Position numbers and translations under genes: made by a program
Assembly (NCBI GenBank): GCA_963729215.1
Contig: CAVSND010000030.1
Coordinates: 74,239 to 138,238 of the forward strand
DNA from: an uncultured Acidobacteriota bacterium
Lineage (GTDB): Bacteria; Acidobacteriota; Vicinamibacteria; Vicinamibacterales; CAVVIG01
Direction of reading: 5' to 3'
DNA: 64,000 nucleotides
Notes under the pieces: generated by a model
What the model saw: the letters and a program-made list of their open reading frames with translations, nothing else
Told to the model about the DNA's origin: nothing
The model's database searches: none
Shown: positions 4,480 to 63,252 of the stretch, in pieces
Layout: each line of letters begins with the position of its first letter
How positions within the stretch are numbered: the first letter of the stretch is position 1

Positions 4480-7039
4480 TTGCCCAGCACGAGGGTGAAA
4501 GTCAAGCTGCGTCGGGTGTCGTCGTTCGCGGGCCTCACGTTGGCACTCTGGCTGGGCATCCTCTGGGTTGCCCTGTCGGCCGTGTCAGCGGTATCGGGTT
4601 CGAGTCCTGTACGCGCCGCTCGCGGCGTCCCGGCTCCCCAGGCACCGGTTCCCTCCCACGCGGCGGCTGCTCAGGATATTCCGGCGGACGCCGTCGCCCA
4701 GCGTGCGCTGCTCGACAAATACTGCGTCACCTGTCACAACCCCCGAACGAAATCGGGCGGCCTGGTTCTGGCCAAGGACGCGATTGACGTGGCGCAGCCC
4801 CCGGAACACGCTGAAGTCTGGGAAAAGGTCATCCGGAAGCTGCACGGACGGATGATGCCGCCCCAGGGCATGCCGCGCCCGGACGAGGCGACGCTCGACA
4901 CCTTCGCGACGTCGCTTGAACGGTCCATCGATCGCGTCGCGCTCACCAGGCCCAACCCTGGCCGCTCTCCGCTCCACCGGCTGAACCGTTCCGAATATGC
5001 CGCCGCCGTACGCGACGTGCTCGCGCTCGACGTGGACGCGACGGCGCTCCTGCCGGCCGATGACGAGGCAAACGGGTTCGACAACATCGCCGATGTCCTG
5101 AAGGTCTCGCCGTCGCTGCTCGAGCAATATCTGACCGCCGCGCGCAGGATCAGCGCGCTTGCCGTCGGCGATCCAGGGACGACGCTGGTCGGCACGGTCT
5201 ACCGCGTGCCGCCCGATCGCGCGCAGGAAGATCACATCGAGGGCCTGCCGCTCGGGACACGAGGCGGCATCCTTGTGCGGCACAACTTCCCGCTCGACGC
5301 CACCTACGAATTCAACGTGGTCCTCCTGCAGAACATCGTCGGCTACGTCCCCGGCCTCGAGTGGCCGCACGAGCTGGAGATCAGCATCGACGGCGCACGC
5401 GTCTTCCTGGCCCCCGTCGGCGGCGCCGAAGACAACAAGCTGTCGGACACGAACCTCGCGCAGACGAAGGAGACGCTCGATCGCCGGCTTCGAACGCGTG
5501 TGCCGGTAACCGCCGGGCCACATGCCGTGGGCGTCACGTTTCTCCGGCGGAACTCGGCAGAGTCCGACGAACCGCTGCAGCCGTTCACGCGCAATCTCGA
5601 TCTGCAGGACATGAACGGGTTCCCGACGATCAACTTCGTGCAGATCACCGGGCCCTTCGCCGCAACCGGACCCGGCGACACGCCGAGCCGCCGGAAGATT
5701 TTCGTCTGCCGACCGCCCGACGAACGCGCCGCGGCCGCGCGGACCGGTGGAGACGAGGGGTCCGCGTGCGCGAAGCAAATCCTCTCGACGCTCGCGCGCC
5801 GCGCGTACCGACGGCCTCCGACCGACGCCGAGATCGACAGCCTGCTGGCGTTCTACAACACGGGCCGCCGCCGCGGCTCGTTCGACACCGGAATCCAGGA
5901 ATCGCTGACGCTCCTCCTCGCCAGTCCGACGTTTCTTTTCCGCGCCGAGCCGGATCCTCCGCAGGTTGCCGCGGGCACCATCTATCCGGTCTCGGATTTC
6001 GAGCTGGCGTCGCGCCTGTCGTTCTTCTTGTGGAGCACGATTCCCGACGACGAGCTGTTGAGCGTCGCGGCGCAGGGCAAGCTTCGGGATCCGGGCACGC
6101 TGGAGAAGCAGGTGCGGCGCATGCTCGCCGACCCGCGGTCGAAGGCTCTCGTCGACAACTTCGCCGCGCAGTGGCTGTTCCTGCGGAATCTCCAGAGCTT
6201 TGTCCCCGACAGCGACGAATTTCCCAACTGGGACGACAACCTGCGCCAGGCGATGCGAACGGAAACGAGCCTGTTCTTCGAGAGCATCATGCGCGAGGAC
6301 CGGAACGTCCTCGATCTGCTGACGGCTGATTACACGTTCGTCAACGAGAGGCTGGCACGGCATTACGGCATTCCGAAGGTGTACGGCAGCCAGTTTCGCC
6401 GGGTGACGATCACGGATGAGAACCGGCGCGGGCTGCTCGGGCAGGGTTCGGTGCTCGCCGTGACGTCCTATCCGAATCGGACGTCGCCCGTCCTGCGCGG
6501 CAAGTACATCCTCGAAAATATCCTCGGCACGCCGCCGCCGTCGCCTCCCGCCAACGTGCCGCCGCTCAAGGAAACGGGCGAAGACGGCCAGGCGCTGTCC
6601 CTGAAGGCGCTCATGGAGCAGCACCGATCGAACCCGGCGTGCGCGACCTGCCATCGCGTCATGGATCCGCTGGGCTTCTCGCTCGAGAATTTCGATGCCA
6701 CGGGCAGGTGGCGCCTGAAGGAAGCCGCCGGCGTCGTCGATGCCTCGGGGCAGCTCGCCGACGGCTCGCCGGTGGATGGTCCGGCCGCGCTGCGCAAGGC
6801 CATCTTGAAGCACCCCGAGCAGTTCGTGCGCACGATGACCGAGAAGATGCTGACGTACGCGCTCGGCCGCGGCCTCGAGTACCACGATCTGCCGACGGTC
6901 AGGTCGATCGCGCGTGATGCCGCCTCGCAGAACAACCGCTTCTCGTCACTCGGTACTGGGCATCGTCCGGAGCACGCCATTTCAAATGAAGCTAAAGGCG
7001 CCAGATTCCGTCGTAGCGGCCGGATTCAGCCGGCCGTGA
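4480..7039 (+). pseudogene. PSD1-like heme-binding protein (PSCyt CxxCH + DUF1587/1592/1595/1588/1585), frame broken at about 6952
   Basis: Motifs DKYCVTCHNPRTKSGGLVL, RLSFFLWSTIPDDELL, NFAAQWLFLRNL, TSPVLRGKYILENILGTPPPSPPANVP, ACATCHRVMDPLGFSLENFD. After RFSSL one extra G shifts the frame. The corrected tail VLGIVRSTPFQMKLKAPDSVVAAGFSRP* stops at 7037-7039. The listed ORF to 7344 is wrong-frame read-through. The start is more likely GTG 4495. Confidence 0.85.
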
Positions 7040-7064
7040 ACGTCCGCCTGAAGGCGGACGCTAC
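7013..7064. repeat. REP-like double-hairpin element (reverse orientation copy)
   Basis: GTAGCGGCCGGATTCAGCCGGCCG-TGAAC-GTCCGCCTGAAGGCGGACGCTAC. It overlaps the last codons and stop of the DUF1592 gene. Confidence 0.85.
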
Positions 7065-7076
7065 GAGAGCATTCTT

Positions 7077-8405
7077 ATGTTCATCACCAAAAAACACATC
7101 GCGCGGCGGACGTTCCTGCGGGGCGCGGGCGCGACGCTGGCGCTGCCGCTCCTCGACGCGATGGTGCCGGCCCGCACGCTGCTCGCGAAGACCGCCGCCA
7201 ATCCCACGGCACGCCTGGGATTCGTGTATCTGCCGCACGGCGCCATCATGGACAAATGGACGCCGGCGACCGAGGGCAAGGGCTTCGAGTTCACCCCGAT
7301 CCTCAAGCCGCTCGAGCCGTTCCGCGAGTACGTGGACGTCGTGAGCGGCCTCGGGCACCGGGCGGCCGACACGTCGGCGGTCCACTCGCTGAGCCCGACG
7401 ACGTGGCTGAGCGGCGTCCGGCCGAAGCCGACGCAGGGCGTGGATGCGTTTGCCGGGATTACGGCCGATCAGATCGCCGCGCTGAAAATCGGGCAGGAGA
7501 CGCCGCTCCCGTCGATTGAAATCGCCACGGAAGATCAGTCGGGCCTCATCGGATCGTGCGACCGCGACTACGGGTGCATCTACATGAACACGTTGTCGTG
7601 GCGGACGCCGACCACGCCAATGCCGATGGAGATCAACCCGCGCAAGGTGTTCGAGCGGATGTTCGGCCAGGGCGGCAGCCCCGCGGAACGCCAGGCGCGG
7701 ACGGAAAGCGACCGCAGCATCCTCGATGCGGTGACGCAGCAGATCAAGGATCTGCAGCGCAGCCTCGGCCGCAAGGACACGGTCACGGTGAACGACTATC
7801 TCGAAAGCGTCCGCGAGATCGAGCGGCGCCTTCAGGTGGCCGGGCACGAACAGCAGACCAGCCTCGATCTGCCCCCGGCGCCCGTCGGCATCCCGTTCAA
7901 CTTCGAAGAGCACATCACGCTGATGTACGACCTCATGGCGCTCGCCTACCAGGCGAACATCACCCGCGTCTTCACGTATATGGTGGCGCGCGAGGAGAGC
8001 AACAAGACGTACCCGCAGGTGGACGTCCACGAAGGACACCACGCGACGTCGCACCACCAGAACAGGCCGGAAAAAATCGAGAAGCTGGTCAGGATCCAGA
8101 CGTACCACATCGGCTTGTTCGCGGAGTTCCTCAAGAAGCTCAACTCGATTCAGGACGGCGACGGCACGCTGCTCGATCATTCGCTGATCCTCTACGGCAG
8201 CAACATGAGCAACAGCAACGTGCACAACCACTTTCCGCTGCCCAACCTTGTCGTCGGCCGCGCCGCCGGCAACCATCAGGGAGGCAGGCACCTGAAGTAT
8301 CCGGACCACACCCCCATGACGAACCTCGTGTTGTCGATGCTGGACAAGGTCGGCGTACCGATGGATACGCTGGGCGACAGCACCGGACCGCTCGAAAACG
8401 CCTGA
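7077..8405 (+). CDS. DUF1552 domain protein with twin-arginine signal
   Basis: MFITKKHIARRTFLRGAGATLALPLLDAM is a Tat-type N-terminus. It is the usual downstream partner of DUF1592 proteins. The ORF is intact at 442 aa. Confidence 0.85.
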   Translation: MFITKKHIARRTFLRGAGATLALPLLDAMVPARTLLAKTAANPTARLGFVYLPHGAIMDKWTPATEGKGFEFTPILKPLEPFREYVDVVSGLGHRAADTSAVHSLSPTTWLSGVRPKPTQGVDAFAGITADQIAALKIGQETPLPSIEIATEDQSGLIGSCDRDYGCIYMNTLSWRTPTTPMPMEINPRKVFERMFGQGGSPAERQARTESDRSILDAVTQQIKDLQRSLGRKDTVTVNDYLESVREIERRLQVAGHEQQTSLDLPPAPVGIPFNFEEHITLMYDLMALAYQANITRVFTYMVAREESNKTYPQVDVHEGHHATSHHQNRPEKIEKLVRIQTYHIGLFAEFLKKLNSIQDGDGTLLDHSLILYGSNMSNSNVHNHFPLPNLVVGRAAGNHQGGRHLKYPDHTPMTNLVLSMLDKVGVPMDTLGDSTGPLENA

Positions 8406-8406
8406 C

Positions 8407-10008
8407 ATGCGCGCGAAGTGGCTGCTCCACGCGGGGTTCGCACTTGCATTGGCGGTGCGTAGCGTCTGCCTTCAGGCAGACGGACAGGACGTCCGGCTGA
8501 AGCCGGACGCTACGGGTGTTCGTCTGGTGGAGGCCGTAAAAGCTGGCGACAAGGCCGCCATCACGACGCTGCTGAAGCAGAAGTCCGGCATCAATACGCC
8601 CGAACCGGACGGCACGACCGCGCTGCACTGGGCTGTTCGCCAGGACGATCTGGAGCTGACCGATCGCCTGCTGCGCGCCGGCGCTGACGTCAAGGCGGCG
8701 AATCGGTACGGGATCACACCGCTCTATCTGGCCAGCCTCAACGGCAACGCCGCCGTCATCGACAAACTGATCAAAGCCGGCGCAGACGCGAACGCCGCCG
8801 TGACTGAAGGCGAGACGGCGCTGATGACCGCTGCCCGCTCCGGCCACGTCGAGGCCGCCAGGGCACTGATCGCGCACGGGGCCGTGGTCGATGCCCGCGA
8901 GCAGTGGCGCGGCCAGACGGCGCTCATGTGGGCCGCGGCCGAGGGCCACGCGGACATGATCAAGGAGCTCGCCGCCCGCGGCGCAGACGTCAACGCGCGG
9001 TCAACCACGCAGCAGTGGGAACGCCAGGTGACCGCCGAGCCTCGCGAAAAATGGCTGCCGCCGGGCGGACTCACGCCGATGCTCTTCGCGAGCCGACAGG
9101 GATGCGTCGAGTGCGTGCGGGTGCTCGCTTCACTCGGCGCCGACGTGAACGCCACCGACCAGGACGGCATCAGCCCGATGATCTCGGCGATCATCAACGG
9201 GCATTTCGATGTCGCGGGCGCACTGCTCGAAAAGAACGCCGACCCCAACATTGCTGATGCGACGGGCCGGACGCCGCTGTATTCGGCCGTGGACCTGAAC
9301 ACCGTGCCCGACTCGAACCGTCCGGCGCCCCACGTCGTCGACAACCAGATGAGCGCGATGGAGCTGATCGCGTCCCTTCTCGACCACGGCGCGAACCCAA
9401 ACGCGCGGCTGAAGAAACAACAGCCGTACCGGACGAAGGTCGACCGCGGCAGCGACAGCATGCTCGGCGCCGGGACGACCCCGTTCCTGCGGGCGGCCAG
9501 GGCCGGCGACGCGCCGGCCATGCGACTCCTGCTCAAACGGGGCGCGGATCCGAAGATCGCCACGGGCTCTGACGTCCCGGTTGACGTCAGCCAGCCCGCG
9601 CGGCGCGCGCCCGGGGGCATCAACGCCCTGATGGCGGCGGCCGGACTGGGCTCGAAGGAAGAGGATACGGTCGGCCGCAGGAAGACCGAACGTCAGTCGA
9701 TCGAAGCGATCCAGGTATGCCTCGAAGCCGGCGTAGACATCAACGCCGTGGACGGCCGGGGTCAGACCGCCTTGTACGGCGCGGCGCTGCAGGGTTACGA
9801 CGAGGTCGTGAAATTTCTCCTCGCGCACGGCGCGAAACTCGACATCAAGGATCAGCGCGGTTTCACCGCGCTTGACGCCGCCGAAGGAAAGGCCGGCGGG
9901 TTCGGCTTCGGCGGCGGCTCCGCCAATCCGCACCCGGCCACCGCGAAGATCCTCCGGGACTCGATGAGCCCGCCCGCAACTCCGACGTCAACTCAGCAGG
10001 TCCGATAG
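8407..10008 (+). CDS. ankyrin-repeat protein, probably secreted
   Basis: Many G.TALH.A...G...V..LL..GADVNA-type repeats. The N-terminus MRAKWLLHAGFALALAV is signal-like. The start lies 2 nt after the DUF1552 stop. A REP copy lies inside codons 18-36. Confidence 0.85.
   Translation: MRAKWLLHAGFALALAVRSVCLQADGQDVRLKPDATGVRLVEAVKAGDKAAITTLLKQKSGINTPEPDGTTALHWAVRQDDLELTDRLLRAGADVKAANRYGITPLYLASLNGNAAVIDKLIKAGADANAAVTEGETALMTAARSGHVEAARALIAHGAVVDAREQWRGQTALMWAAAEGHADMIKELAARGADVNARSTTQQWERQVTAEPREKWLPPGGLTPMLFASRQGCVECVRVLASLGADVNATDQDGISPMISAIINGHFDVAGALLEKNADPNIADATGRTPLYSAVDLNTVPDSNRPAPHVVDNQMSAMELIASLLDHGANPNARLKKQQPYRTKVDRGSDSMLGAGTTPFLRAARAGDAPAMRLLLKRGADPKIATGSDVPVDVSQPARRAPGGINALMAAAGLGSKEEDTVGRRKTERQSIEAIQVCLEAGVDINAVDGRGQTALYGAALQGYDEVVKFLLAHGAKLDIKDQRGFTALDAAEGKAGGFGFGGGSANPHPATAKILRDSMSPPATPTSTQQVR
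8459..8513. repeat. REP-like double-hairpin element with compensatory stem changes
   Basis: GTAGCGTCTGCCTTCAGGCAGACG-GACAGGAC-GTCCGGCTGAAGCCGGACGCTAC. Both stems differ from the consensus by paired substitutions. Confidence 0.85.
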
Positions 10009-10035
10009 CGCACGGCTCTTCTGGATTTTCCACAC

Positions 10036-11416
10036 GTGCCCCTGCGAGCTGGCCTGATCGTTTTTGTGGCGCTTGCAGGGCTCGCCCTGCCGCTTGCCGC
10101 GCCGGCGGCACCGACCGACGACCCTAACGCACGCATCCTCAGGGTGGAGCGCTGGCTCAAGGCAGTGCTCAGCCATCAGCCCGGCCAGAAGGACGATGCG
10201 GTCAGCGAGGTCGCGGCGTGGTCGAATGCCGATCTCCGCACGCTGGGCTTCGACGAGCGCGTCCTCGTCGAGCTGATGCGGAATCCCGCAGTCAAGCAGC
10301 TGAAAGCTGCGATCCCGACAGGCCGCGGGCGTCCGCTGGCTGACCTATACCTCCTGGCAGCTGCACAGGCTCCGCGTTCTGAGTTGCGCGGGCGGCGGCC
10401 TGGTCTCCTCACGCGACTGCCGGGATCTCAACGCCGGGGACGAAATCGATGCCCGCTTGAGCCGCCTCGCAAATCTGGCGGCGCAGTCGCGAGCCCTCGG
10501 CGACGACAACTACGTCGTCCGGCGCGGTGCGCTGCTTCACGGGGATGTCGCGATGTCCGCGGAAGCGCTGGGATGGGCCGGCGCCGACGCAGGAAGCGGC
10601 GGCCCGCTGCGGGTCGCCGTGGAAGACGGCCGGGAAACCAGCCTGAGGGTGGGCGCGCTCCACTGGGAGTTCGCCCGGGCGCTCTTCGATGCCGTGAAGC
10701 CCGGACCCGACGAGATGGTCCGCCGCTGGTATGTCGCCACCAGCAGCTGGATGCAGGGCCGCGAGCAGCACGATACGGAGCATCTCAAACGCGCGCGGCA
10801 ACTGTTCCCCGACGACGCCGAGATCCTCTTTTGGAGTGGCTGCCAGCAGGAGGTCTACGCGAGCCCGATGATTCAGGCGGTGGCGCGCTCGGCGGTCCTT
10901 CCCACCGGGTATCACGTCGATGTCCCGCCGCAAGGTCCGGCGCTCGCCGATGCCGAGACGTTTTTCCGGCGCGCGCTGAACGTCAACCCAGGATTGGTCG
11001 AGGGCCGCGTGCGTCTGGGGCATGTGCTGCTGGCCCAGGGCAAGGTTCAGGAGGCGGCGGACGAGTTGCGCGAGGCCGCCCCGGCGGCCGACGAGCCGCA
11101 GCTCCGATACTTCGCCGCGTTGTTTCTCGGCACGGCGGAAGAAGAGTTGGGCCATTTCGACGCCGCACGCGACCAGTACAAGCGAGCCGCCGCGCTTTAC
11201 CCGCGTGCCCAGGCCCCCTACCTGGCGCTGAGCGCGCTGATTTCGCGACGGGGCGATCGCGCGGGCGCACGGAATGAGGTGCAGCGTGTCTTCGAGCTCC
11301 CCGCTGCGCCGCCGCGGCGGGACGATCCGTGGTGGGATTACACGATCTTCCAGGCGCGCAACGTCGACGCGCTGTTCAAACGACTGCACGAGTTGTTCCC
11401 GGTGCCCGAGCCATGA
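10036..11416 (+). pseudogene. secreted TPR-containing protein, frame broken near 10327
   Basis: The signal peptide and N-part lie in ORF 10036.. (MPLRAGLIVFVALAGLALPLAAPAAP..VKQLKAAIPTGR). The rest lies in the frame of ORF 10457..11416, which is open back to 10304 (GVRWLTYTSWQLH...TPR-like LGHVLLAQGKVQEAADELREA). The junction is in a GGG run. Confidence 0.65.
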
Positions 11417-12291
11417 GGCTGCGACGAGGCCCTGTAATCCTCGTGGTCGCGACGTACCTGGCGGTATCGGTTGTCGTCGTGCGAACGCAGGACGTGACTT
11501 TCTCGAGCCGCATCGAGGCCGTGCGCGTCGACGTGCTGGTGACCGACAACGGCCAGCCCGTTCGCGGCCTGGGTCCGGCCGATTTCGAGATCAGGGATAA
11601 CGGGGTCGTGCAGCAAGTCGACCTGGTCAGCTTCGATCAGGTGCCGCTGAACGCCATCCTGGCGCTCGATATGAGCGACAGCGTCGCCGGCGAGCGCCTG
11701 GATCGATTGCGCGCCGCGGGCAACGCCGTTCTCACGGGCCTGAAGCCCGCCGATCAGTCGGCGCTCGTCACGTTCAGTCACGTCGTGCAGCTGGGCGCGA
11801 AGCTGACGCACGACGTCGGACTGGTGCGCGCGGCTCTCGTGCGGGCAGCCGGCACGGGCAATACGGCGCTGTTCGACGGCACGTACGCAGGAATCACGGT
11901 CGGCGGAACAGAGGCCGGGCGGGCACTGTTGATTGTGTTCAGCGACGGACTCGACACTTCGAGCTGGCTGACCGCCGACAAGGTGCTCGACGCGGCCCGG
12001 CGATCCGACGTGATCGTCTATGCGGTGTCAGTGCGATCGCCGACTAAACCCGATTTCCTGCGCGACCTGACGTCGCTGACATCCGGGCGGCTCTTCGAGG
12101 TCGAAAAGACCGAAAGCCTCGAGGCCGTCTTCGTGGGCATCCTCGAGGAGTTCCGCCACCGCTACCTGGTGAGCTACACGCCGCGTGGCGTCTCCCCGGA
12201 AGGCTGGCACAAGCTGGACGTTCGCGTGAAGCGAAAGGCGGTCGTCAGGGCGCGGCCGGGCTACCAGTCCGCGCCAGCCGCCGCGAAATGA
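11413..12291 (+). CDS. VWA domain protein (acidobacterial VWFA-related, TIGR03436-like)
   Basis: MRLRRGPVILVVATYL.. TFSSRIEAVRVDVLVTDNGQPVRGLGPADFEIRDNGV.Q.V..F...PL...LALDMSDS. ATG 11413 overlaps the upstream stop (ATGA). Confidence 0.8.
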   Translation: MRLRRGPVILVVATYLAVSVVVVRTQDVTFSSRIEAVRVDVLVTDNGQPVRGLGPADFEIRDNGVVQQVDLVSFDQVPLNAILALDMSDSVAGERLDRLRAAGNAVLTGLKPADQSALVTFSHVVQLGAKLTHDVGLVRAALVRAAGTGNTALFDGTYAGITVGGTEAGRALLIVFSDGLDTSSWLTADKVLDAARRSDVIVYAVSVRSPTKPDFLRDLTSLTSGRLFEVEKTESLEAVFVGILEEFRHRYLVSYTPRGVSPEGWHKLDVRVKRKAVVRARPGYQSAPAAAK

Positions 12292-12297
12292 CGCGCG

Positions 12298-12840
12298 TTA
12301 CTTGATCGTCATCGGCACGGTCGCGGCGTGCTGTTCCCACGCGAGCTTCAGTTCGACCTTGCCCGAGCCCTGGTCGGTCAGTGTGTAGTGCAGCGTCTCG
12401 ACGGGCGCCGGCGGCTTCGACATCGTCATCTTGACGCGGCCGAGGTCCTGCGAAGCCGCGTAGCTCAGGCCCCACTGCCCCGTCTGTTTGTTGATGATCA
12501 GCTGCCAGTTGTCGGGGTCTTTCACCCACACGTAAAGCGTGTAGGTGCCCTTCGGGACCGTGAGGCCGCCCACGTCGAGATCGGCGTCTGTGTGGAACGT
12601 GGTCGCCGAGTTCGCGCCCGCCCGCCACGCCGGGTACGTCGGATCCCTCGACAGGAGGCCGCCGTCGCCGAAGATCTTCCGGCCGCGCACCGACGGCGCG
12701 GAATAACGCACGCTCAGATTCTTCCCCGCCACCGTCACGGTGGCCGTGGCCGGAGGGCTCTGCGCCCAGACGGCAGTGGCGTTGACGACAAACAAGGCGG
12801 CACTGCACGTCAGGAGGAATTTCGACATAAGGGTCCTCAT
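12298..12840 (-). CDS. DUF2911 family protein (secreted)
   Basis: MRTLMSKFLLTCSAALFVVNATAVWA signal; GRKIFGDGGLL..DPTYPAWRAGANSATTFHTDADL..G..VPKGTYTLYV. The longer ORF to 12915 only adds translated REP sequence. Confidence 0.8.
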   Translation of the reverse strand: MRTLMSKFLLTCSAALFVVNATAVWAQSPPATATVTVAGKNLSVRYSAPSVRGRKIFGDGGLLSRDPTYPAWRAGANSATTFHTDADLDVGGLTVPKGTYTLYVWVKDPDNWQLIINKQTGQWGLSYAASQDLGRVKMTMSKPPAPVETLHYTLTDQGSGKVELKLAWEQHAATVPMTIK

Positions 12841-12850
12841 CGCACTGGGT

Positions 12851-12903
12851 GTAGCGTCCGCCTTCAGGCGGACGGCGAACGGCCGGCTGAAGCCGGCCGC
12901 TAC
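12851..12903. repeat. REP-like double-hairpin element (consensus-like copy)
   Basis: GTAGCGTCCGCCTTCAGGCGGACG-GCGAAC-GGCCGGCTGAAGCCGGCCGCTAC. Confidence 0.9.
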
Positions 12904-12921
12904 ATGGTTCGGCAAATCGTT

Positions 12922-14100
12922 CTAATACTCATCAGCGAGCGCAAAACGCGGGTCCGCGGCGAGGCACGGCGCCTCTGGCAGCCCGATTTCCTTTCGAACG
13001 ATATTGGTGCCGCGCACGATCGCGACCATCTTGTAGAACGCGATGCGCCGCGACATGCCTTCCCGCCCGAATCCGCAGTCGCTCGTCACGACCAGGCGCT
13101 CGACCGGGATGTACTGCAGCGCCTTGCGAATGACGGCCGCGACCTGATCGGGCGTCTCCACCTGGAGGTTCCGGTGATCGACGACGCCGATCGCGATTTT
13201 CTTCCCGGTGATCGTCCTGCCGATGGCCTCGAGATCCAGGCCGTCGTTGGCGCACGTCTCGAACGTCATCACGTCGACGTCGAGCTTGTCGAGCAGCGGC
13301 AGGGCGCTCGCATAAGACTGATTCGTCGCGTAGAGGCGCTGCTGCGCGGGATTGCCCCAGCACGTGTGACACCAGACCTCCGTGGTGTCGCGCAGGCCTT
13401 TCACGGTGCGGTTGAACGTGTCGACGAAGAACTCGGGGCCGAGCAGCGGCGCGCCGCCGCCGCGCTGGATTCCGGCAAGGTGAATGTTTGGCTCTTCCAT
13501 CTGGATGATGGCGCACCCCGCATTCGCCAGATCCCCCAGTTCGGCACGCATGGCATCGGCGAGCGCAAACAGCAGATCCTCCTGGCTCGCGTAGTGATCG
13601 TTGCCGATCGACGTGCCAATGAGGTCCGGCACGATCGTCCCGAACTTGACCGGCCTCGACGTGAGCCCCTGCGCCACCTTCCACAGATAGGTGTAGTGCA
13701 GCGAGCCGCGTTCGACCGGTCCGACGCAACGCGGCATCACGCGGCTTTCCATCACTTCGAAGATAATGTCCCCCTTGCGCGTGCCGCCGTAGCCCTTCCT
13801 GGTGCGGTGGTAATCGCCGCCGCCGAGGCCCTTGAACCGGCGCGCCGGGTACTGGAACCAGCTCATGCCGCCGACGTCGGAGTCGAAGCGCGCGTCGCCG
13901 TCAGTGACGATATCGAGGCCGGCTCGTTCCTGGTCGCGGATGAACGTGCCAACGGCGTCGGTGTACTGCTCGCGGAAACGTGCGTCGGCGATGGCGTCGC
14001 GGAATGAACGTTGACCGAGGTTCTCGACGTACCACGCGGGCCGCGGAAGCGAGCCGGTGATCGTCGTCGGCAGGGTCATCGAGTCGGTTGTCTTGGGCAT
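12922..14100 (-). CDS. cobalamin-independent methionine synthase (MetE C-terminal/UROD-like) family protein
   Basis: LPTTITGSLPRPAWY.., GLDIVTDGD.R.D, IQMEEP.., TSDCGFG.. are motifs of the MetE-like family. The ORF is intact at 392 aa. Confidence 0.7.
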   Translation of the reverse strand: MPKTTDSMTLPTTITGSLPRPAWYVENLGQRSFRDAIADARFREQYTDAVGTFIRDQERAGLDIVTDGDARFDSDVGGMSWFQYPARRFKGLGGGDYHRTRKGYGGTRKGDIIFEVMESRVMPRCVGPVERGSLHYTYLWKVAQGLTSRPVKFGTIVPDLIGTSIGNDHYASQEDLLFALADAMRAELGDLANAGCAIIQMEEPNIHLAGIQRGGGAPLLGPEFFVDTFNRTVKGLRDTTEVWCHTCWGNPAQQRLYATNQSYASALPLLDKLDVDVMTFETCANDGLDLEAIGRTITGKKIAIGVVDHRNLQVETPDQVAAVIRKALQYIPVERLVVTSDCGFGREGMSRRIAFYKMVAIVRGTNIVRKEIGLPEAPCLAADPRFALADEY

Positions 14101-14216
14101 CGGTCTTCGTATTCGCGTTGAGGGCCACGCACGTGGGATCTTTGACGCGTCCGGGCTGGCCGGGGGTTCTCGTTAAGGTCGGTGACAGTTTAACTCTGCA
14201 GGAGAATTTCAGACAT

Positions 14217-15098
14217 ATGGCGAATCTCGGCTACGTGGGTCTTGGCGCGATGGGCAGTCAGATGGCGGACCGCCTGATGGGAAAAGGCCACACGGTCACT
14301 GGCTACAATCGCACGAAATCGAAAGCGGACTGGCTGATCAAGAAAGGCATGGCGTTCGCTGAAACGCCGAAGGCCGTGTGTCAGGCCGCCGACTACGTGT
14401 TCGTGATGGTGACCAACTCGGCATCGCTCGAGGCGGTGGCGAACGGGCCCGACGGCCTCCTCGCCGGCCTCGCGCCGGGCAAGGTCATCATCGACATGAG
14501 CACGGTCAGCCCCGCCGTGAGCAAGGCGCTGGCGGCGAAGGTCCGGGAGAAGGGCGCCGATATGGTCGATGCGCCCGTGTCGGGCAGCATCGTGACTCTC
14601 CAGCAGGGCAAACTCTCGGTGATGGTCGGCGGCAGCAAATCCACCTTCGACAAGATCAAACCGATCCTGGACGACGTCGGCCCCAAGGTGACCCACGTCG
14701 GCGACAACGGCCTCGCGCTGGTGATGAAGATCGCGAGCAACCTGAGCCTCGCCGTCCAGATGCTCGCGTTTTCAGAAGGCGTGCTGCTCGCCGAAAAGAG
14801 CGGGATCTCGCGCGCGACCGCCGTCGACGTGCTGACGCACAGCGCGATCGCCTCGCCGATGGTCGTCTATCGTGGACCGTTCGTGCTGCAGATGCCGGAA
14901 GAAGCCTGGTTCAACGTGAACATGATGCAGAAGGACATGATGCTCGCATTGGACCTGGGCCGTCAGATGGACGTCCCGCTGCCGACAACCGCCGTGACCA
15001 ACGAATACCTGACGGCCGCCCGCGCGATGGGGCTGGTGGAAGAGGACTTCGCGACCATCTTCAAGGTCCTCGCGCACATGTCCGGCGTGAAGCCATAG
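14217..15098 (+). CDS. NAD(P)-dependent oxidoreductase, 3-hydroxyisobutyrate/6-phosphogluconate dehydrogenase-like
   Basis: MANLGYVGLGAMGSQMADRLMGKGHTVTGYNRT is a Rossmann motif, followed by DAPVSGS. AGGAG lies 12 nt upstream of ATG 14217. The longer ORF from 14088 is unlikely. Confidence 0.8.
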   Translation: MANLGYVGLGAMGSQMADRLMGKGHTVTGYNRTKSKADWLIKKGMAFAETPKAVCQAADYVFVMVTNSASLEAVANGPDGLLAGLAPGKVIIDMSTVSPAVSKALAAKVREKGADMVDAPVSGSIVTLQQGKLSVMVGGSKSTFDKIKPILDDVGPKVTHVGDNGLALVMKIASNLSLAVQMLAFSEGVLLAEKSGISRATAVDVLTHSAIASPMVVYRGPFVLQMPEEAWFNVNMMQKDMMLALDLGRQMDVPLPTTAVTNEYLTAARAMGLVEEDFATIFKVLAHMSGVKP

Positions 15099-15111
15099 CC
15101 CGCCGCGTCGG

Positions 15112-15137
15112 GGCGTCCGGCTGAAGCCGGCCGCTAC
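15112..15137. repeat. half REP-like element (single hairpin)
   Basis: GGCGTCCGGCTGAAGCCGGCCGCTAC. Its terminal CTAC supplies the TAG stop of the minus-strand gene ending at 15134. Confidence 0.7.
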
Positions 15138-16330
15138 GGGACGGCCGCCCGCGCGGTCTTGACGCGAGACGACTCCTGCTCGCTTTCGGTCCAGGCGAGC
15201 ACCACCTCGTCGCGGGCCAGCGCCATCCGCGGATATCGGGTTCCGGACTGATTCGCCACGACGACGGCCGGCGAGCGCGTGCCGTTCGCCTCGACGTGCC
15301 GGATGGAGAACTGCGGCGTCTGCCCGGCGGACTCCACCCAGCCGACGATTGCCGAGCCGTCTTTCTTCAGCGCCACGACCACGCGCCCGAGCGACTCCAC
15401 ATCGTCGGCGCGGACGGGCGCGCCGAAGGTCTTGCCGCCGTCGTGCGAGAACGCGAGATACGAGCGGTTGACGTCCTTCGGCGCCGTGAACCACGCGACG
15501 ACGACGTCGCGGCCGCGGGCCGCGACCGACGGTCCATTCACCGGGCAACCCTCGATCTTGAAATTGTCGCGATGCACGGGAATGGGCATCGTCCAGCGGC
15601 CCGCCGAGAGGCGCGTCACGTAGATGTCGCGAATCTCGCCGGGGCTGCGGTTCCTGAACGCCGCGATCGGGCCATCGGCGGTCAGCGCCACGCTGGTCGG
15701 ACAGCATTCGCAGACGCGCGAGTCGATGAGCGTGTCCGACAGCGGCTTGTGGCTCTTGTCGAAAATCGCCGCGCGCAGCTGCATGTCGCCTTCGTCACCA
15801 TGTGTGGCACGGCCGTCCAGCCAGACCAGTCCCGTTCCCCCATCCGGCATCGGAAATATCGACCCGAACCCGTGCTGCGAAATCGTCTTGTCGCGGTTTG
15901 GCGCCACAGGCGCCGACCAGCTCCTTCCGTCGGTTGACCATGCAATTCGCAGGTCGTAGGCCTCGGGATCGGGGCCGTTTTCCTCCATCCAGTGGGCGGC
16001 CAGCGTGCCATCGGGCAACGGCCGCACCGACGGGACGTCCGCCGAATTGACCATCAGGTGTTCGCTCGACACCACCACGCGCGAATCCGACCAGCCGCCG
16101 GCGGTCCGCTCCGCAAATTTCAGAGCGGCCTGCTTCCCCGACCGTTCGATCCAGCTCAGGATGGCGCGGTCGCCCTCAACGGTCAGTTGGGGCGCGGAGC
16201 TGTTGGCGCCGGCAGGAGAGGTCAGCGGCTCGATGGTCAGAGAGCGTCCGTCGGCGGCGTGTGGAACGCGCGCCATCAGGCAGAGCGACAAAGTGAGGGC
16301 GATTGGGACAAATACCCGCGCTTTCCACAT
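15134..16330 (-). CDS. sialidase/BNR-like beta-propeller protein (secreted)
   Basis: Signal MWKARVFVPIALTLSLCLMA. Repeated S.DGG.TW/S.DG..W-like blades (AWSTDGRSWS, FSHDGGKTFG). Confidence 0.6.
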   Translation of the reverse strand: MWKARVFVPIALTLSLCLMARVPHAADGRSLTIEPLTSPAGANSSAPQLTVEGDRAILSWIERSGKQAALKFAERTAGGWSDSRVVVSSEHLMVNSADVPSVRPLPDGTLAAHWMEENGPDPEAYDLRIAWSTDGRSWSAPVAPNRDKTISQHGFGSIFPMPDGGTGLVWLDGRATHGDEGDMQLRAAIFDKSHKPLSDTLIDSRVCECCPTSVALTADGPIAAFRNRSPGEIRDIYVTRLSAGRWTMPIPVHRDNFKIEGCPVNGPSVAARGRDVVVAWFTAPKDVNRSYLAFSHDGGKTFGAPVRADDVESLGRVVVALKKDGSAIVGWVESAGQTPQFSIRHVEANGTRSPAVVVANQSGTRYPRMALARDEVVLAWTESEQESSRVKTARAAVP

Positions 16331-16408
16331 GTTCTCTCTCCATGTCGTGAGGCCTTCGCCTTCGCTGAGCGGCTGAAGGTCCGCACTACTCTCGACATAC
16401 TACGATTC

Positions 16409-17843: not shown

Positions 17844-18965
17844 GTGCTCATCCTCAAACGCGTCGCGGCGATCGTCGTGCTCGCCGTCGGCTTTCCCTAC
17901 GTGCTCTCGCCAGTTTACCGGTTTCCGCCACCACGCACGTTCAGCGGTCCCGCGCTCTGGAATCCGTACGCCCACCTGACCGGGTCGTGGCAGCGCGCGA
18001 ACCTGCACGCGCACGGGCACGCGTGGAGCGGCCTCACCAACGGCACACACACCGACGACGAGGTCGTGCAGGCGTACCGCGAGCGCGGCTACTCCGTCGC
18101 GGGCGTGTCGGACTACCAGTGGATCGCCGCCCAGCACGGCGTCCCGACGATGCCGCTATATGAGCATGGCTTCAACATCAGCAAGGAGCACCAGCTCGCC
18201 ATCGGCGCCGAGCGGGTCGAGTGGCTCGACTTCCTGTTGTGGACATGGATCAATCAGAAGCAGTTCATCCTGAACTGCGTGGCGGGGACGACGGCCCTCG
18301 TGGCCATCAACCATCCGGGCACCGCCTACAGCGAAGGCGATTTCCGCAAGTTGACGGGCTATCACCTGATGGAGGTCATCAACGGACCATTCGGGTTCGA
18401 GGACCTCTGGGACGCGGCGCTGTCGAGCGGCCATCCGGTGTGGGCCCTCGCCAACGACGACATCCACGATCTGACAAACGTCCGGCGCCTCGCCATCGCC
18501 TGGAACATGATCGACGCGCCGTCGGCCAGCGTGCCGGACGTCATCGCCGCGCTGCGCGCCGGCCGCGCGTATGCCGTCTCGCTCGTTGGTGAGAAGGCCG
18601 ATGCCGCCCTCGCCAGCGTCAAGGTACAGGATTCGAAGCTCACCGTGGCGTCCTCAGGCGTGCCGGCGACGTACGTCTTCATCGGGCAGAATGGTTCGGT
18701 GCGGCAGTCGTTCGATCAGGTCATGCAGGCGACCTACGAAATCGGCAAGGACGACACATACGTCCGAACGGTCATTCGGACTCCCAACATGGTGATGTAT
18801 CTGAACCCGGTTCTGCGGTACGACGGCGTCGCGCTGCCGGCGCCGCTGGCAGTCGTCAACGAGCCGCTCACATGGCTGTCCCGGGCGTTCGCCGGCGCGG
18901 TGTGCATCATCATTCCGCTGCTGTTGTGGCGCCGGGGCGCGGCGCGCGGATCGGAGCGGGCGTGA
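17844..18965 (+). CDS. membrane-anchored PHP-like metal-dependent phosphoesterase family protein
   Basis: N- and C-terminal TM segments. ANLHAHGHAWSG..., INHPG and NDDIHD are His/Asp clusters reminiscent of the PHP fold. Confidence 0.45.
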   Translation: MLILKRVAAIVVLAVGFPYVLSPVYRFPPPRTFSGPALWNPYAHLTGSWQRANLHAHGHAWSGLTNGTHTDDEVVQAYRERGYSVAGVSDYQWIAAQHGVPTMPLYEHGFNISKEHQLAIGAERVEWLDFLLWTWINQKQFILNCVAGTTALVAINHPGTAYSEGDFRKLTGYHLMEVINGPFGFEDLWDAALSSGHPVWALANDDIHDLTNVRRLAIAWNMIDAPSASVPDVIAALRAGRAYAVSLVGEKADAALASVKVQDSKLTVASSGVPATYVFIGQNGSVRQSFDQVMQATYEIGKDDTYVRTVIRTPNMVMYLNPVLRYDGVALPAPLAVVNEPLTWLSRAFAGAVCIIIPLLLWRRGAARGSERA

Positions 18966-21388
18966 AACACCGTGTCGCCATCGCGCGGCTGCTGGCCGCT
19001 GTATCACTCGTCCTGATCGTGCTCAGCGTGCCGTCCGCGGCACGCGCGCAGCAGGCGGCGGCCCCGGACGAGCACGCGCCGACCGGATCGAGTTTCTCCC
19101 TCATGATGCTCCGCGACCTGCCCTCGAGCAACAACCTGTTCTCGCTCCTCGAGGGCGTAGAACCCAACGTGATCACCGATCGCTTCTACGGCGGGGGGCT
19201 CAATACCGGGCAGAGGGCGCGCATCGGGGCATTCCTGAACTCCTGGACGCAGACGCAGTACCGCGTGGGAGACGTCAATATCACCGCGCCGGATGGCAGC
19301 GGATCGCCGTTCTTGTTCCCGGCGCTTCCGCTGTGGGAGCGCGTGGACGTCGCCGCGGGCGTCATGCCCATCGGCTTCGGCGCTCCCGGCCTCGGCGTGT
19401 CGTTCGAACCGATGCGACCGTCTGGCAGATGGACCGGCGCCGCGGAGGCGTCGTTCGCCGGATCCGGCCTGGTCGCGAGCCCCTCCGCGGGCGCGCCGGC
19501 GAACCCCATCGAGACGCTGACGAACTGGGGCCACGGAGGATTTCTCGTGAGCGGACCCGTCACACCCCGCCTGGGCCTGGTGACGGCGATCGAGTGGTCC
19601 CAGTCGGATCAAGTGGAGCGAGCCGGCGCGACACAAGCCAGCGGACGCGCATCTTCAGCGTTCGCCAACGTCGTGTTCGCGCCAAACGGCCGTGACGAGT
19701 TCCGCACCGTCGCCTGGTTTCAACATGCGCAGGCGCCGTTCGTGCCGGCGCTGACTGCCGCGCCGTCGACGGCCACCGACGAGCAGACGTTTACGCATCT
19801 CCAGTCCACGTGGCAGCGCGCGGACGCAGGACTGTTGTGGCGATTGTTTGGCGCGTACTCCCAGAGAACCAGCACCCGCACGCCGCTCAACTGGGCTGGC
19901 TCGACCCAACTGATCGAACGGCTCACGGATGGCCCGGTGCCGCTGCTCGCCGCGTCAGGCGACCGGAGCGACCATCGATGGTCCATCGGTATGCGGGCCT
20001 CTCCGGCGCCTCCGCCGATAGGCGGCGTCACCCAGGCCCTGCAGTTTGGCGCCGACCTGATGGGCGCAGGGTCTCGCGTGGGAGCCTTTTCGGGCTCCAT
20101 TGGCGAGCTGGTGGACGGTGCGCGCGCGCGCATGTGGACGTTCACGAGCCCGGGCATCGATGCGCAGCGCCACGAGACGGCCTTTTCGGCGTTTGTCGCC
20201 GATCGTATTCAGGCTGGCAGCAGCATTACGGCCGAAATCGGCCTCACCTACGACGGCGTCAGGGGGTCTGCCGAGTCCGCGGCACAGGGCATCAGCTGGG
20301 ACACCTTGCTGCCGAGCGCCTCGATCTGGTGGGCGGCCACCAAATCGGGACACACGTGGATATTCGGGTCCTACCGGAAGGCCGCCGATGTCCTCACGCT
20401 CGACACGCTGGCGGTCGGCGATCCCGCGGCGCCGACCGGCACCATGTCCGCCTGGACCTCGCAGGGCGTCGGCCCCATCGTCGCGCGTGTCGGGCCGGGC
20501 ACCGGAGGCAACCAGTCGTTCAGCGCGATTTCCCCTTCGCTGAACCGTCCCACGACGGACGAATTGACGGTTGGCGCGGAGTATCGGCCGGGTGCGGGCA
20601 TGCGGTTCCGGCTCGCGGGCGTCATCAAGCGCCAGCACAATCGGATCGATCTCGTGAACACGGGGGTGCCCGTGTCGAGCTATTCCCTGTCCACGGTCGT
20701 AGACGGACGGCCCTCCGCTGACGGGGGCGACACGCTTTTGCCGGTCTACAACCGGCTCCCGTCGAGCTTCGGCCGCGATCAATATTTGCTGTCGAACCCG
20801 GCGTCGGATGACGACACGTTCGAGGGCCTTGTCCTGAGCGGCGACATGTCGCGCGGCAAATGGTCCCTGCTGTTTGGCGCGACCGCGAGCCAGACCTCGG
20901 GGCTTGCCTCGAACCGCGGATTCCATGCCGACGAAAACGATCCCGGGATTGCGGGTGAAGTGTTCACCGATCCAAACGCAACCAACGACGCGCGGGGCCG
21001 TCTTTTTTTCGACCGGGCGTTCACCATCAAGATCGCAACCGTCCGTCGATTTACACACGACGTCACCGTCGGCCTGATCGCGCGCTATCAGGACGGCCAG
21101 CCGTTCTCCCGCGTGACGGTTGTGCCGGGCCTGAATCAGGGAACGGACTTCATACGGGCGTTCCCGGCTGGCGACGCGCGGTTCAGCTTCACGGGCACGC
21201 TCGACTTCCGAGTGCAGAAGGGATTTGGGGCTGGCCCGGCGCGAGTGGACGCCTTCCTCGACGTGTATAACCTCTTCGACCTGGGCTACGAGGTGGAAGA
21301 GCGGGTCGTAACCGGCAGCAGCTTCCGCACCATCACCGCGATCCAGCCGCCCATGGCGGCGCATATCGGCGTGCGCGTGACGTTTTAG
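18962..21388 (+). CDS. TonB-dependent receptor-like outer-membrane beta-barrel (no CarboxypepD_reg domain)
   Basis: GTG 18962 overlaps the upstream stop (GTGA). Signal VKHRVAIARLLAAVSLVLIVLSVPSAARA. Plug-like LRDLPSSNNLFSLLEGVEPNV. C-terminal ...HIGVRVTF ends in an aromatic residue, as in OMPs. Confidence 0.65.
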   Translation: MKHRVAIARLLAAVSLVLIVLSVPSAARAQQAAAPDEHAPTGSSFSLMMLRDLPSSNNLFSLLEGVEPNVITDRFYGGGLNTGQRARIGAFLNSWTQTQYRVGDVNITAPDGSGSPFLFPALPLWERVDVAAGVMPIGFGAPGLGVSFEPMRPSGRWTGAAEASFAGSGLVASPSAGAPANPIETLTNWGHGGFLVSGPVTPRLGLVTAIEWSQSDQVERAGATQASGRASSAFANVVFAPNGRDEFRTVAWFQHAQAPFVPALTAAPSTATDEQTFTHLQSTWQRADAGLLWRLFGAYSQRTSTRTPLNWAGSTQLIERLTDGPVPLLAASGDRSDHRWSIGMRASPAPPPIGGVTQALQFGADLMGAGSRVGAFSGSIGELVDGARARMWTFTSPGIDAQRHETAFSAFVADRIQAGSSITAEIGLTYDGVRGSAESAAQGISWDTLLPSASIWWAATKSGHTWIFGSYRKAADVLTLDTLAVGDPAAPTGTMSAWTSQGVGPIVARVGPGTGGNQSFSAISPSLNRPTTDELTVGAEYRPGAGMRFRLAGVIKRQHNRIDLVNTGVPVSSYSLSTVVDGRPSADGGDTLLPVYNRLPSSFGRDQYLLSNPASDDDTFEGLVLSGDMSRGKWSLLFGATASQTSGLASNRGFHADENDPGIAGEVFTDPNATNDARGRLFFDRAFTIKIATVRRFTHDVTVGLIARYQDGQPFSRVTVVPGLNQGTDFIRAFPAGDARFSFTGTLDFRVQKGFGAGPARVDAFLDVYNLFDLGYEVEERVVTGSSFRTITAIQPPMAAHIGVRVTF

Positions 21389-21406: not shown

Positions 21407-21459
21407 GTAGCGTCCGCCTTCAGGCGGACGTTCGCCGGCCGGCTGAAGCCGGCCGCTAC
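21407..21459. repeat. REP-like double-hairpin element
   Basis: GTAGCGTCCGCCTTCAGGCGGACG-TTCGCC-GGCCGGCTGAAGCCGGCCGCTAC, between convergent genes. Confidence 0.9.
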
Positions 21460-28257: not shown

Positions 28258-28337
28258 CTCGAGTGCAGCGGCAGGGGCGTTAGAGCATATTTCAGACTCG
28301 CGTACCATCTCCGATCGTACCCACGCCGACGCGTCAC

Positions 28338-28775
28338 GTGGTGGTCGGTGGGCCCTGCGTCGGGCACGGTCGTCAGCCCGGAAAAACGACGCGGCGGCAT
28401 CATCGTGTAATGTCATGGCGCTCGGCCCAGGTTTGGGCTCTCGCGGTGGTGGCCGCCGCGTCGTTTTTCGCGTTCGAGACGGGCTGAGACCTATCGCCCG
28501 ACGCAGGGCCCGCCGACCACCGCCTGACGCACACGGGTGCGTGAGACTCCCACGGATTAGCCAGCCCCCGGATCAGGGACGAGGAGTCGCGGTCTCGCAT
28601 CGTGGCTGGGCCAATGATGGAAGGCGGCGTGACCGTCGTCAGACGATAAAACGCCGGGTTTTTCCACGCCGAGCTTCGTATTGGCCAAGCCGCGATGCGG
28701 GACCGCGACGGTGGTTCGACGACTCGCCGTAAAAACGCTATGTCCCCCGCGCTTCGCACTCCGGCGAGCGTCGTC
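28338..28775 (+). ncRNA. candidate structured RNA / palindromic element cluster (unclassified)
   Basis: H1: 28338-28365 pairs with 28496-28523 (28 bp, 2 G-U), 28374-80 with 28480-86, 28381-98 with 28452-69 (18 bp perfect), plus 9 more bp with 3 G-U. H2: 28597-28615 pairs with 28680-28698 and encloses two small hairpins. H3: about 28718-28775. I saw no known RNA-family motif. Confidence 0.3.
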
Positions 28776-28803: not shown

Positions 28804-29302
28804 TCACTCGCGCAGTCTGTAGAACGTGATCATGTCGGTGCTCTTCGGCGGAGGAGCCCCGAGCTGGCGCAGCAGCGTTGTCACCTGGCCGCGGTGATAG
28901 CTTCCGTGATTGACCACGTGAGTGAGCATCTGAAAGAACGGTGACGCGCCCGTTGCGCCGCTGAGCAGCTTGTACTCGAACACGCGCGAGACGCCGGCCT
29001 CGCCAAGGCCTTCGACGAACCCGCGGACTTTCCCCTCGAGATCGACCCACGACCTGCGAATGGAATCAACATCGGGAAACGTGTCGTACGCGATCAGAGA
29101 CGAAGGGGATTCGCCAAGCCACCGCGTGTACCACACAAGGTCGGCGGCGTAGATGTGCGCCACGGTGTCGCGAACGGACTTGAAGCTGCTGTCCACCGAG
29201 ACGGGTGAACTGCTCCGGCGTCAGCGGCGTGACGGCTTCCAGGATGAGGTCGCGGGCCCAGTAGTGATAATCGAGCAGCGTGCGGAGATCCTTGAGGTCC
29301 AT
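28804..29302 (-). pseudogene. DinB-family (DinB_2/DUF664-like) protein, frame broken near 29200
   Basis: MDLKDLRTLLDYHYWARDLILEAVTPLTPEQFTR lies in one frame. VDSSFKSVRDTVAHIYAADLVWYTRW..HVVNHGSYHRGQVTTLLRQLG lies in the next (ORF 28804..29196). Confidence 0.75.
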
Positions 29303-30974: not shown

Positions 30975-31070
30975 GGTGTCTGGGTCCTTTCCTTTCAGGA
31001 AATGCGCTTCTGAACCATTAGACGGCGCACCGCCTGTCAGGGACGTGGCTGGGACATTACAAAGAGGAAA

Positions 31071-31135
31071 GGTTCGAGAGGTTCGAGAGGTTCGAGGGGT
31101 TCGAGAGGTTCTAGGGGTTCGAGAGGTTCAGGTGG
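31071..31135. repeat. solitary tandem array of 7 GGTTCGAGA-type units
   Basis: GGTTCGAGA GGTTCGAGA GGTTCGAGGG GTTCGAGAG GTTCTAGGG GTTCGAGAG GTTCAGGTGG. It encodes the last residues (HLNLSNP*) and the stop of the histidine kinase. The unit is the same as at 63166-63752. Confidence 0.85.
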
Positions 31136-42548: not shown

Positions 42549-42594
42549 GTAGCGTCCGCCTTCAGGCGGACGTCCGGCTGAAGCCGGACGCTAC
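42549..42594. repeat. REP-like double-hairpin element (no spacer)
   Basis: GTAGCGTCCGCCTTCAGGCGGAC-GTCCGGCTGAAGCCGGACGCTAC, between convergent genes. Confidence 0.9.
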
Positions 42595-63230: not shown

Positions 63231-63252
63231 GTCGGAGCGGCGGGCATGCTTT

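Follow-up and report, generated by a model that had tools for sequence, protein, structure and literature searches.

GTAG-tagged repetitive extragenic palindromes, presumably spread by a RAYT-type transposase, in an uncultured Acidobacteriota bacterium

The stretch analyzed here, 64,000 nucleotides of contig CAVSND010000030.1 from an uncultured Acidobacteriota bacterium (positions 74,239 to 138,238; hereafter the window), has a G+C content of 66% and carries multiple copies of a short inverted repeat that we regard with good confidence as a GTAG-tagged repetitive extragenic palindrome (REP), its copies being presumably spread by a transposase of the REP-associated tyrosine transposase (RAYT) type. 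The REP unit is 24 nt long and comprises the tetranucleotide GTAG, an 8-bp stem (CG+N6), a TTCA loop, and the complementary arm. In the window, the units are arranged as five inverted pairs with GTAG outward (HH pairs), one singleton, and one decayed copy of a sister subfamily, as listed below with the variable arms of their stems.

7013-7064 (-), HH pair, reversed relative to the other pairs: units 7013-7036(+), GCCGGA/GCCGGC with one mismatch, and 7041-7064(-), TCCGCC/GGCGGA; spacer 4 nt; overlaps the last codons of a DUF1592-family gene and ends 12 nt before the start of a DUF1552 gene (7077).
8459-8513 (+), HH pair: units 8459-8482(+), TCTGCC/GGCAGA, and 8490-8513(-), TCCGGC/GCCGGA; spacer 7 nt; in frame within the ankyrin open reading frame (ORF) 8407-10008.
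12851-12903 (+), HH pair, the copy flagged by the initial annotation: units 12851-12874(+), TCCGCC/GGCGGA, and 12880-12903(-), GCCGGC/GCCGGC; spacer 5 nt; between the stop of a MetE-like gene (12922, -) and the ATG of a DUF2911 gene (12829, -).
15114-15137 (-), singleton: GCCGGC/GCCGGA, one stem mismatch; flanked by the convergent genes 14088-15098(+) and 15134-16330(-), of which the second takes its stop codon from the TAG of GTAG (15136-15134).
16366-16389 (-), decayed sister-subfamily copy (GTAGTGCGGACCTTCAG...): 15.4 bits, E 0.39; upstream of the ATG at 16330.
21407-21459 (+), HH pair: units 21407-21430(+), TCCGCC/GGCGGA, and 21436-21459(-), GCCGGC/GCCGGC; spacer 5 nt; between the convergent genes 18872-21388(+) and 21518-23449(-, HD-GGDEF protein).
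42549-42594 (+), compact HH pair: units 42549-42572(+), TCCGCC/GGCGGA, and 42571-42594(-), TCCGGC/GCCGGA, overlapping by 2 nt; between the convergent genes of an amidase (40949-42529, +) and a chlorite-dismutase-like protein (42609-43532, -).

A search of the window for GTAGCG-N6-TTCA-N6-CG gave 11 exact matches, a copy count clearly above the 0.01 predicted by shuffling with dinucleotides preserved. When a covariance model was made from 59 distinct unit variants, the 11 window units scored 34.6-41.6 bits in it, and the next candidate 18 bits. The GTAG tag is present in all 11 of them, and its invariance in the wider sets used below is by construction, the tag being part of every search pattern. 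Scanning the window against Rfam at gathering thresholds and for tRNAs returned no matches. Reading of the individual sites bore out the coordinates of the copies proposed in the initial annotation, in which the half copy at 15112-15137 corresponds to the unit 15114-15137(-). The possible relic placed at 16348-16388 is indeed a decayed copy, but one lying at 16366-16389(-) and deriving from a sister subfamily rather than from the main family: its first 17 nt are those of the sister subfamily GTAGTGCGGACCTTCAGGTCCGCC, which is intact in locus L083 (L083:7518-7572), and its 3' arm is lost and no longer complementary.

Scanning the degenerate 24-mer against one genome per species of the GTDB collection and against JGI metagenomes revealed the same 24-mers in at least 94 eight-kb blocks from at least 27 assemblies of the former and in at least 120 contigs of the latter, which establishes that the proposed REP-like family is dispersed and is not the product of a local duplication. 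Among the GTDB-collection matches listed, nearly all are Acidobacteriota metagenome-assembled genomes (MAGs) labelled Vicinamibacterales, Vicinamibacteria or Thermoanaerobaculia, with many separate REP-bearing 8-kb blocks per MAG, and orthologues of the DUF1552 protein of the window likewise carry the names Acidobacteriota or Vicinamibacterales. The REP pairs of the window are 93-98% identical to those of the MAGs, while the only syntenic genes are 65-70% identical. The doublet had no match in a plasmid database. The label of one MAG, CAZOIK01, is 'uncultured Bifidobacteriaceae', and two of its contigs (L022 and L023, 67-69% G+C) bear REPs; as every other REP-bearing assembly listed is from Acidobacteriota, CAZOIK01 may be a mislabelled or contaminated bin.

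In the first set of loci, we counted 39 HH pairs against 6 pairs with GTAG inward (TT) and 5 in tandem (HT), along with 73 singletons. Heterodimers account for 77 of 80 HH pairs, nearly all of them joining a ..CCGCC.. unit to a ..CCGGC.. unit, a make-up that resembles the composition of Escherichia coli bacterial interspersed mosaic elements (BIMEs) from the two types Y and Z. The spacers of HH pairs cluster at -2 and 4-5 nt, the value of -2 being found in 19 of the 80 pairs. This heterodimer bias suggests that the doublet is a defined element that avoids a perfect long palindrome, such avoidance being one plausible reason for heterodimers being near-universal. L120 and L030 contain tandem clusters, formed by single units in 40-nt arrays. 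At L120:5577-5720 and 8040-8255, four tandem 40-nt repeats with one REP unit each form a BIME-like cluster, near which a tandem duplication of about 105 nt comprises a REP pair and the 5' end of the adjacent gene.

A census of 373 units with at most one stem mismatch, taken from all fetched DNA, is dominated by three perfectly complementary stems, CGTCCGGC (117 units), CGTCCGCC (100) and CGGCCGGC (53), next to which there are dozens of rarer co-varying stems and a TTTA loop variant. In the 59 variants, both sides vary in seven of the eight stem pairs, and pairing is intact in 94% of cells, compared with 68% for shuffles and 22-42% for slid controls. As only variants with no more than one stem mismatch had been admitted to this set, the figure describes the family and is not an independent test of covariation. 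More telling are the paired differences observed at orthologous sites, namely GCCGGC/GCCGGC in the window versus GCCGCC/GGCGGC in L053 at the DUF1592/DUF1552 junction, and TCCGCC/GGCGGA in L216 versus TCTGCC/GGCAGA in the window within the ankyrin gene. The compensatory stem changes put forward in the initial annotation are thus real as paired variation, with orthologous examples, but most variants are amplified subfamilies and not independent events. Indeed, TCCGGC/GCCGGA, which had been taken for a private compensatory change, is instead the commonest subfamily everywhere (117 of the 373 units), and TCTGCC/GGCAGA is rare.

With DNA parameters, a pair folds best as one long imperfect hairpin of -22 to -27 kcal/mol (z -4.4 to -5.8), and with RNA parameters the lowest-energy fold of the pair 12851 consists of two hairpins and a GTAG/CTAC closing helix. 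In the four pairs tested, the two-hairpin and long-hairpin folds are 0.1-3.3 kcal/mol apart. The two-hairpin structure with paired termini that had been drawn from the sequence therefore holds as the RNA-parameter optimum at 12851, the DNA parameters slightly preferring the long hairpin.

Comparison with close relatives reveals that the copies come and go. L217, a 10-kb metagenome contig 95-97% identical to positions 5839-15908 of the window, covers four REP sites. The pair 8459-8513 is present and identical in L217, as well as in L218, and the unit 15114-15137 is present at L217:9302-9325 with a perfect stem and a TTGA loop. The pair 12851-12903, on the other hand, is absent from L217, where the flanks are 95-96% identical, and also from L095, whose MetE-like protein is identical to that of the window; the site 7013-7064 is occupied in L217 by an unrelated 133-nt element of inverted 8-mer arrays. 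Turnover is recent, since a contig as close as L217 lacks the pair 12851, bears a different repeat at 7013, and has the two other sites in common with the window. At 12851, it is the whole 53-nt doublet that is present in the filled and missing in the empty site, through either gain or loss. The DUF1592/DUF1552 junction extends this observation over greater distances: in orthologues whose proteins are 93%, 90% and 86% identical, the gap measures 18, 14 and 3 nt, with no REP, while a REP is present at the junction in the much more distant L083 and L053, so that the site has been gained or lost repeatedly.

Side observations were made at these and at other loci. The L217 element (L217:1177-1300) reads (GTCATCTN)x4 ... 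(NAGATGAC)x3, an architecture like that of the 9-mer arrays of the window described at the end of this text, and the element may represent another, second class of intergenic repeat in such genomes. The DUF1592/PSD-family gene (4480-7344) that is overlapped by the pair 7013-7064 has an apparent +1 frameshift at about 6945-6955 relative to L083, L053 and L216 (TCACTCGGTACTG in the window versus TCGCT-GGTGCTC in the relatives), either a sequencing error or a genuine lesion; the frame-corrected protein ends ...PFQMKLKAPDSVVAAGFSRP* at a TGA within the REP spacer. Two MAGs with flanks 91% identical have an orthologous REP that is immediately preceded on its 5' side by a heptamer array, (CAGTCGG)n (L002:4520-4555 and L011:1040-1110), the two arrays differing in length by 8 repeat units.

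The pair 8459-8513 departs from the extragenic habit of the family. The ankyrin ORF 8407-10008 in which it lies starts 1 nt past the DUF1552 stop, and the same start is found in orthologous contigs. Its signal-peptide-like N terminus, MRAKWLLHAGFALALAV, is followed by the pair, read as RSVCLQADGQDVRLKPDAT, and then by the first ankyrin repeat. REP-encoded peptides occur in 55 of 118 full-length orthologues, in every case within the first 95 residues and nowhere else in the protein, the commonest being SVRLQAD (21), SAGLQAG (9), RPAKAGR (6) and SVCLQAD (4), along with about 20 VRLKPDAT-like peptides. The residue that precedes the Ser is Cys in 22, Arg in 12, Gly in 3 and Ser in 1, as predicted for the NGT codons created by N-GTAG-C. 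The T-GTAG-C junction accordingly yields Cys-Ser in 22 orthologues, and in 14 of these 22 this Cys is that of a loosely defined lipobox-like motif. At the DNA level, L216 has one in-frame unit and L219 has in-frame tandem 24-nt units. Since one unit amounts to 8 codons, its gain or loss preserves the reading frame, and at this hot spot units have been gained, paired, tandemly duplicated, subfamily-swapped and lost in frame. That the REP unit acts as a recurrent frame-neutral coding module appears doubtful. Were selection to favour the ankyrin insertions, for instance at a lipobox or cleavage region or as a flexible tether, this would go beyond a routine REP family, and the same would apply if the family spread without any RAYT.

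RAYT mobilisation is the most likely mechanism for a family whose anatomy, abundance, distribution, context and presence/absence turnover are directly observed, and we infer both the enzyme and the single-strand step. By analogy with known systems, each unit or the whole doublet would fold into a hairpin in single-stranded DNA, and a REP-associated tyrosine (HUH/Y1) transposase would recognise the GTAG and the hairpin, cut, and rejoin, whereby doublets would be copied to new places without target duplication. Copies would then persist where they are least harmful, that is after stops, between convergent or co-directional genes, and occasionally in a tolerant in-frame linker, and singletons and relics would be decayed doublets. 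E. coli TnpA_REP is the sole RAYT for which binding and cleavage of a single-stranded GTAG hairpin have been demonstrated (cited in PMC3733652).

The search for such an enzyme combined tblastn with E. coli TnpA_REP (PDB 4ER8), a hidden Markov model of 120 RAYTs, and an HUH...Y regular expression, applied to six-frame ORFs. A protein homology search with E. coli RayT gave 120 best matches that are all from Enterobacteriaceae, with no acidobacterial lead. Two loci were considered and rejected as candidates: the L080 pairs, which lie 830 bp apart and could have formed a REPtron, enclose a cytochrome b gene, and the L120 arrays, 2.3 kb apart, enclose two ordinary-sized genes too long for a RAYT. 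The idea that GTAG is a pre-existing target rather than a part of the element was also considered. It is favoured by the 7013 site of L217, which keeps a TCG-TAG stop without any REP, but is not supported generally, the empty 12851 site having no GTAG. The target of IS608 is TTAC.

Four points weigh against a RAYT-mobilised GTAG family. First, no RAYT or Y1 (HUH) transposase gene was found in the window and 214 REP-bearing stretches, about 1.36 Mb in all; genomes that have a single RAYT locus each but hundreds of REPs would give about one match in such a sample, and this absence is thus uninformative. Second, the difference between the filled and the empty allele at 12851 is wider than the 53-nt block itself and takes in about 9 nt of the flanks, which points either to something other than a clean insertion of 53 nt or to later mutation of the site. 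Third, the near-identity of units across such divergent hosts is, to our knowledge, deeper than in the known population cases of REPINs (REP doublets forming hairpins), and could result from host function or horizontal spread. Fourth, the Y1 transposases of Acidobacteria in the published survey are only 'TIRYTs', flanked by terminal inverted repeats (PMC3733652), and the class 3 Y1 enzymes of Acidobacteria have CnGA feet and not GTAG REPs (PMC6006769).

Some of these points are shared by a first alternative, in which the REPs are orphans with no transposase of their own, as has been proposed for CGTC-tagged REPs, and change independently of any RAYT by tandem duplication, gene conversion, hairpin slippage and deletion, or in which the RAYT has been lost and the copies are fossils. 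The missing RAYT and the untidy allele boundaries at 12851 would both fit it, as would the variable copy number of the tandem arrays (L120, L219) and the repeated events at sites already occupied, such as the ankyrin hot spot and the DUF1592/DUF1552 junction. Furthermore, two of the three main stem types start with CGTC right after GTAG, and CGTC is the tag of a transposase-less class of REPs. We nevertheless hold this alternative to be unlikely. A pair that differs between 95-97% identical genomes at an otherwise REP-free site requires de novo insertion or a sufficiently precise loss, without a copying activity it is hard to obtain hundreds of near-identical copies at unrelated loci in many genomes, and GTAG is the very hallmark recognised by RAYTs (PMC3733652).

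The genomic context of the units brings in a second alternative, according to which they are host regulatory hairpins under selection, acting as factor-independent terminators, attenuators or stabilisers of mRNA 3' ends, their mobility being irrelevant. Using a simple GC3-based gene caller that required GC1 > GC2 (G+C at the respective codon positions), we found a predicted stop no more than 120 nt before 71 of 113 elements; for random positions, the number is about 11 of 113. The TAG of GTAG is the stop codon of a gene for 49 of 388 units, including that of the window gene 15134-16330(-). In 84% of units, GTAG is preceded by a C or a T. In the window, the copies at 15114, 21407 and 42549 lie between convergent genes and those at 12851 and 7013 between co-directional genes; exact-protein look-ups of the genes flanking 7013, 21407 and 42549 returned no record. 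The strong enrichment just past stops and between convergent genes, the stable folds, a REP sequence conserved far above the flanking genes, and the stabilisation of upstream mRNA by REPs in other bacteria (PMC3733652) all speak for such a role. However, no T/U tract follows any copy (the flanks read atggttcgg, gggtgttcg, ggctgttcg, tcgcgcgcg and gacggaatc), hence these are not canonical intrinsic terminators. Copies also occur before starts inside operons (7013, 12851) and within a coding region (8459), presence and absence differ between near-identical genomes with the same genes, and an RNA hairpin needs no conserved GTAG tag. Hairpins that owe their existence to host regulation are thus improbable, and regulatory roles fit REPs as a secondary, co-opted function and not as an alternative identity.

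This context also qualifies what had been concluded from the sequence on annotation. Not all copies lie at gene ends, given that 8459-8513 is inside the ankyrin ORF and 7013-7064 reaches into the final codons of the gene before it. The false N-terminal extension suspected for ORF 12298-12915 was confirmed, the gene of its orthologue being called at an ATG matching 12829. Translated copies are, however, not always spurious: the peptides of 8459-8513 (..SVCLQAD..VRLKPDAT..) belong to a conserved ORF, and the GTAG of 15114-15137 supplies a stop.

Lastly, it is highly improbable that a DDE transposase moves the 46-55-bp doublet through GTAGCG... terminal inverted repeats, as it would a miniature inverted-repeat transposable element (MITE): these repeats are perfect (GTAGCG/CGCTAC and beyond) and the size and distribution are MITE-like, but no direct target-site duplication flanks the five window pairs or shows in the filled/empty comparison at 12851, singletons and head-to-tail single-unit arrays are common, and each arm is itself a GTAG-tagged palindrome, the signature of a REP and not of the end of an insertion sequence.

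Among known systems, the closest is the GTAG REP superfamily, GTAG-1 to GTAG-24, defined by Di Nocera, De Gregorio & Rocco in 2013 (PMC3733652), with stems of 5-13 bp and loops of 2-20 nt. As in this superfamily, a terminal GTAG is found beside a G+C-rich stem-loop, the units form complementary stem subfamilies and clusters, HH dimers predominate and are often heterodimers, and copies lie after ORFs and between co-directional or convergent genes, with TAG used as a stop and occasional intragenic units. Indeed, every sequence-level feature of the superfamily that we tested was found here, the comparison being made with the described features. The differences reside in the host phylum, the survey hosts being Proteobacteria, Cyanobacteria, Chloroflexi and the PVC group, in a stem that starts directly after GTAG, usually with CGTC, and in dimer spacers of -2 to 9 nt, as compared with 20-100 nt in most GTAG families and 1-2 nt in O. 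terrae (PMC3733652).

The E. coli REP/BIME system with its TnpA_REP (RayT; PDB 4ER8) shares the inverted doublets of two types, the GTAG tag, the tandem clusters and the extragenic location. Its REPs have no sequence similarity to the units described here and are longer and imperfect, with bulges, larger loops, and inter-REP motifs that bind integration host factor (IHF) and gyrase; furthermore, the cognate RayT of E. coli, flanked by BIMEs, is known, and none was found here in the 1.36 Mb searched. The REPIN-RAYT systems of Pseudomonas (Bertels & Rainey 2011, PMC3116915; 2017, PMC5581495) resemble the present family in that the doublet is the apparent replicating unit. They also have in common with it singletons that are apparently decayed doublets, the possibility of a long hairpin, and presence/absence polymorphism among close relatives. 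The spacers of Pseudomonas REPINs are much longer than those observed here. Moreover, these REPINs go together with single-copy RAYTs of group 2 or group 3, such an enzyme not having been found in the 1.36 Mb searched here, and the unit identity that we observe spans far more divergent hosts. The CGTC-tagged REPs (Neisseria dRS3, Rickettsia RPE; PMC3733652) are comparable in their 8-9 bp stems, 4-5 nt loops and HH dimers, in having no transposase gene found nearby, and in the CGTC with which two of the three main stems start here. Every unit of the present family nonetheless has GTAG, while the CGTC REPs are devoid of it; a conserved 3-bp tail is a further feature of the CGTC REPs.

No description of this REP family in Acidobacteriota was found in the literature searched, and a tool paper of 2025 that deals with three other Acidobacteriota goes no further than a count of generic palindromes. 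The family is thus new for this phylum and ordinary in kind, the in-frame ankyrin hot spot and the deep conservation of the units being its only mildly unusual aspects. It extends GTAG-tagged REPs to Acidobacteriota, which are among the most abundant soil phyla, and provides 24-mers that are convenient markers for Vicinamibacterales-like DNA in soil metagenomes. Filled and empty sites are usable for studying REP dynamics outside Proteobacteria, and the ankyrin alleles constitute a natural series of in-frame REPs within one protein. For annotation, these repeats create false ORFs and N-terminal extensions and hide both the GTAG stops and the genuine ankyrin insertion.

Other repeats and structures also occur in the window. 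At 28331-28530, between the ORFs 27802-28257(+) and 28804-29220(-), a near-perfect rod-like hairpin of about 200 nt, unrelated to the REPs, has an RNA minimum free energy of -157 kcal/mol (z = -11.7 versus shuffles); its sole Rfam match is a sub-threshold VA RNA, which is surely spurious, and a 6S-like RNA and a long-inverted-repeat element are both conceivable identities for it. At 63253-63684, a gene of the 23S rRNA-intervening-sequence-protein family (PF05635, E 3e-25) is flanked by inverted 9-mer arrays, (TTCGAGAGG)x6 at 63166-63221 and (CGAACCTCT)x9 at 63673-63750, whose arms are 92% complementary; the whole (63166-63750) has the appearance of an inserted cassette, with a VTT/DedA gene on one side and a CutA1 gene on the other. 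The 9-mer array was found in none of 216 fetched loci. At 31070-31129, where an HtrA-like protease gene (Trypsin_2/PDZ) apparently begins, there is a third 9-mer array, (AGGTTCGAG)x6.7. Additional 7-11-mer tandem arrays, apparently intergenic, occur at 48830, 50212, 58185, 3341 and 44670, and those at 51287-51312 and 51337-51362 are tandem arrays disposed as an inverted pair (CGCAGAGAT).

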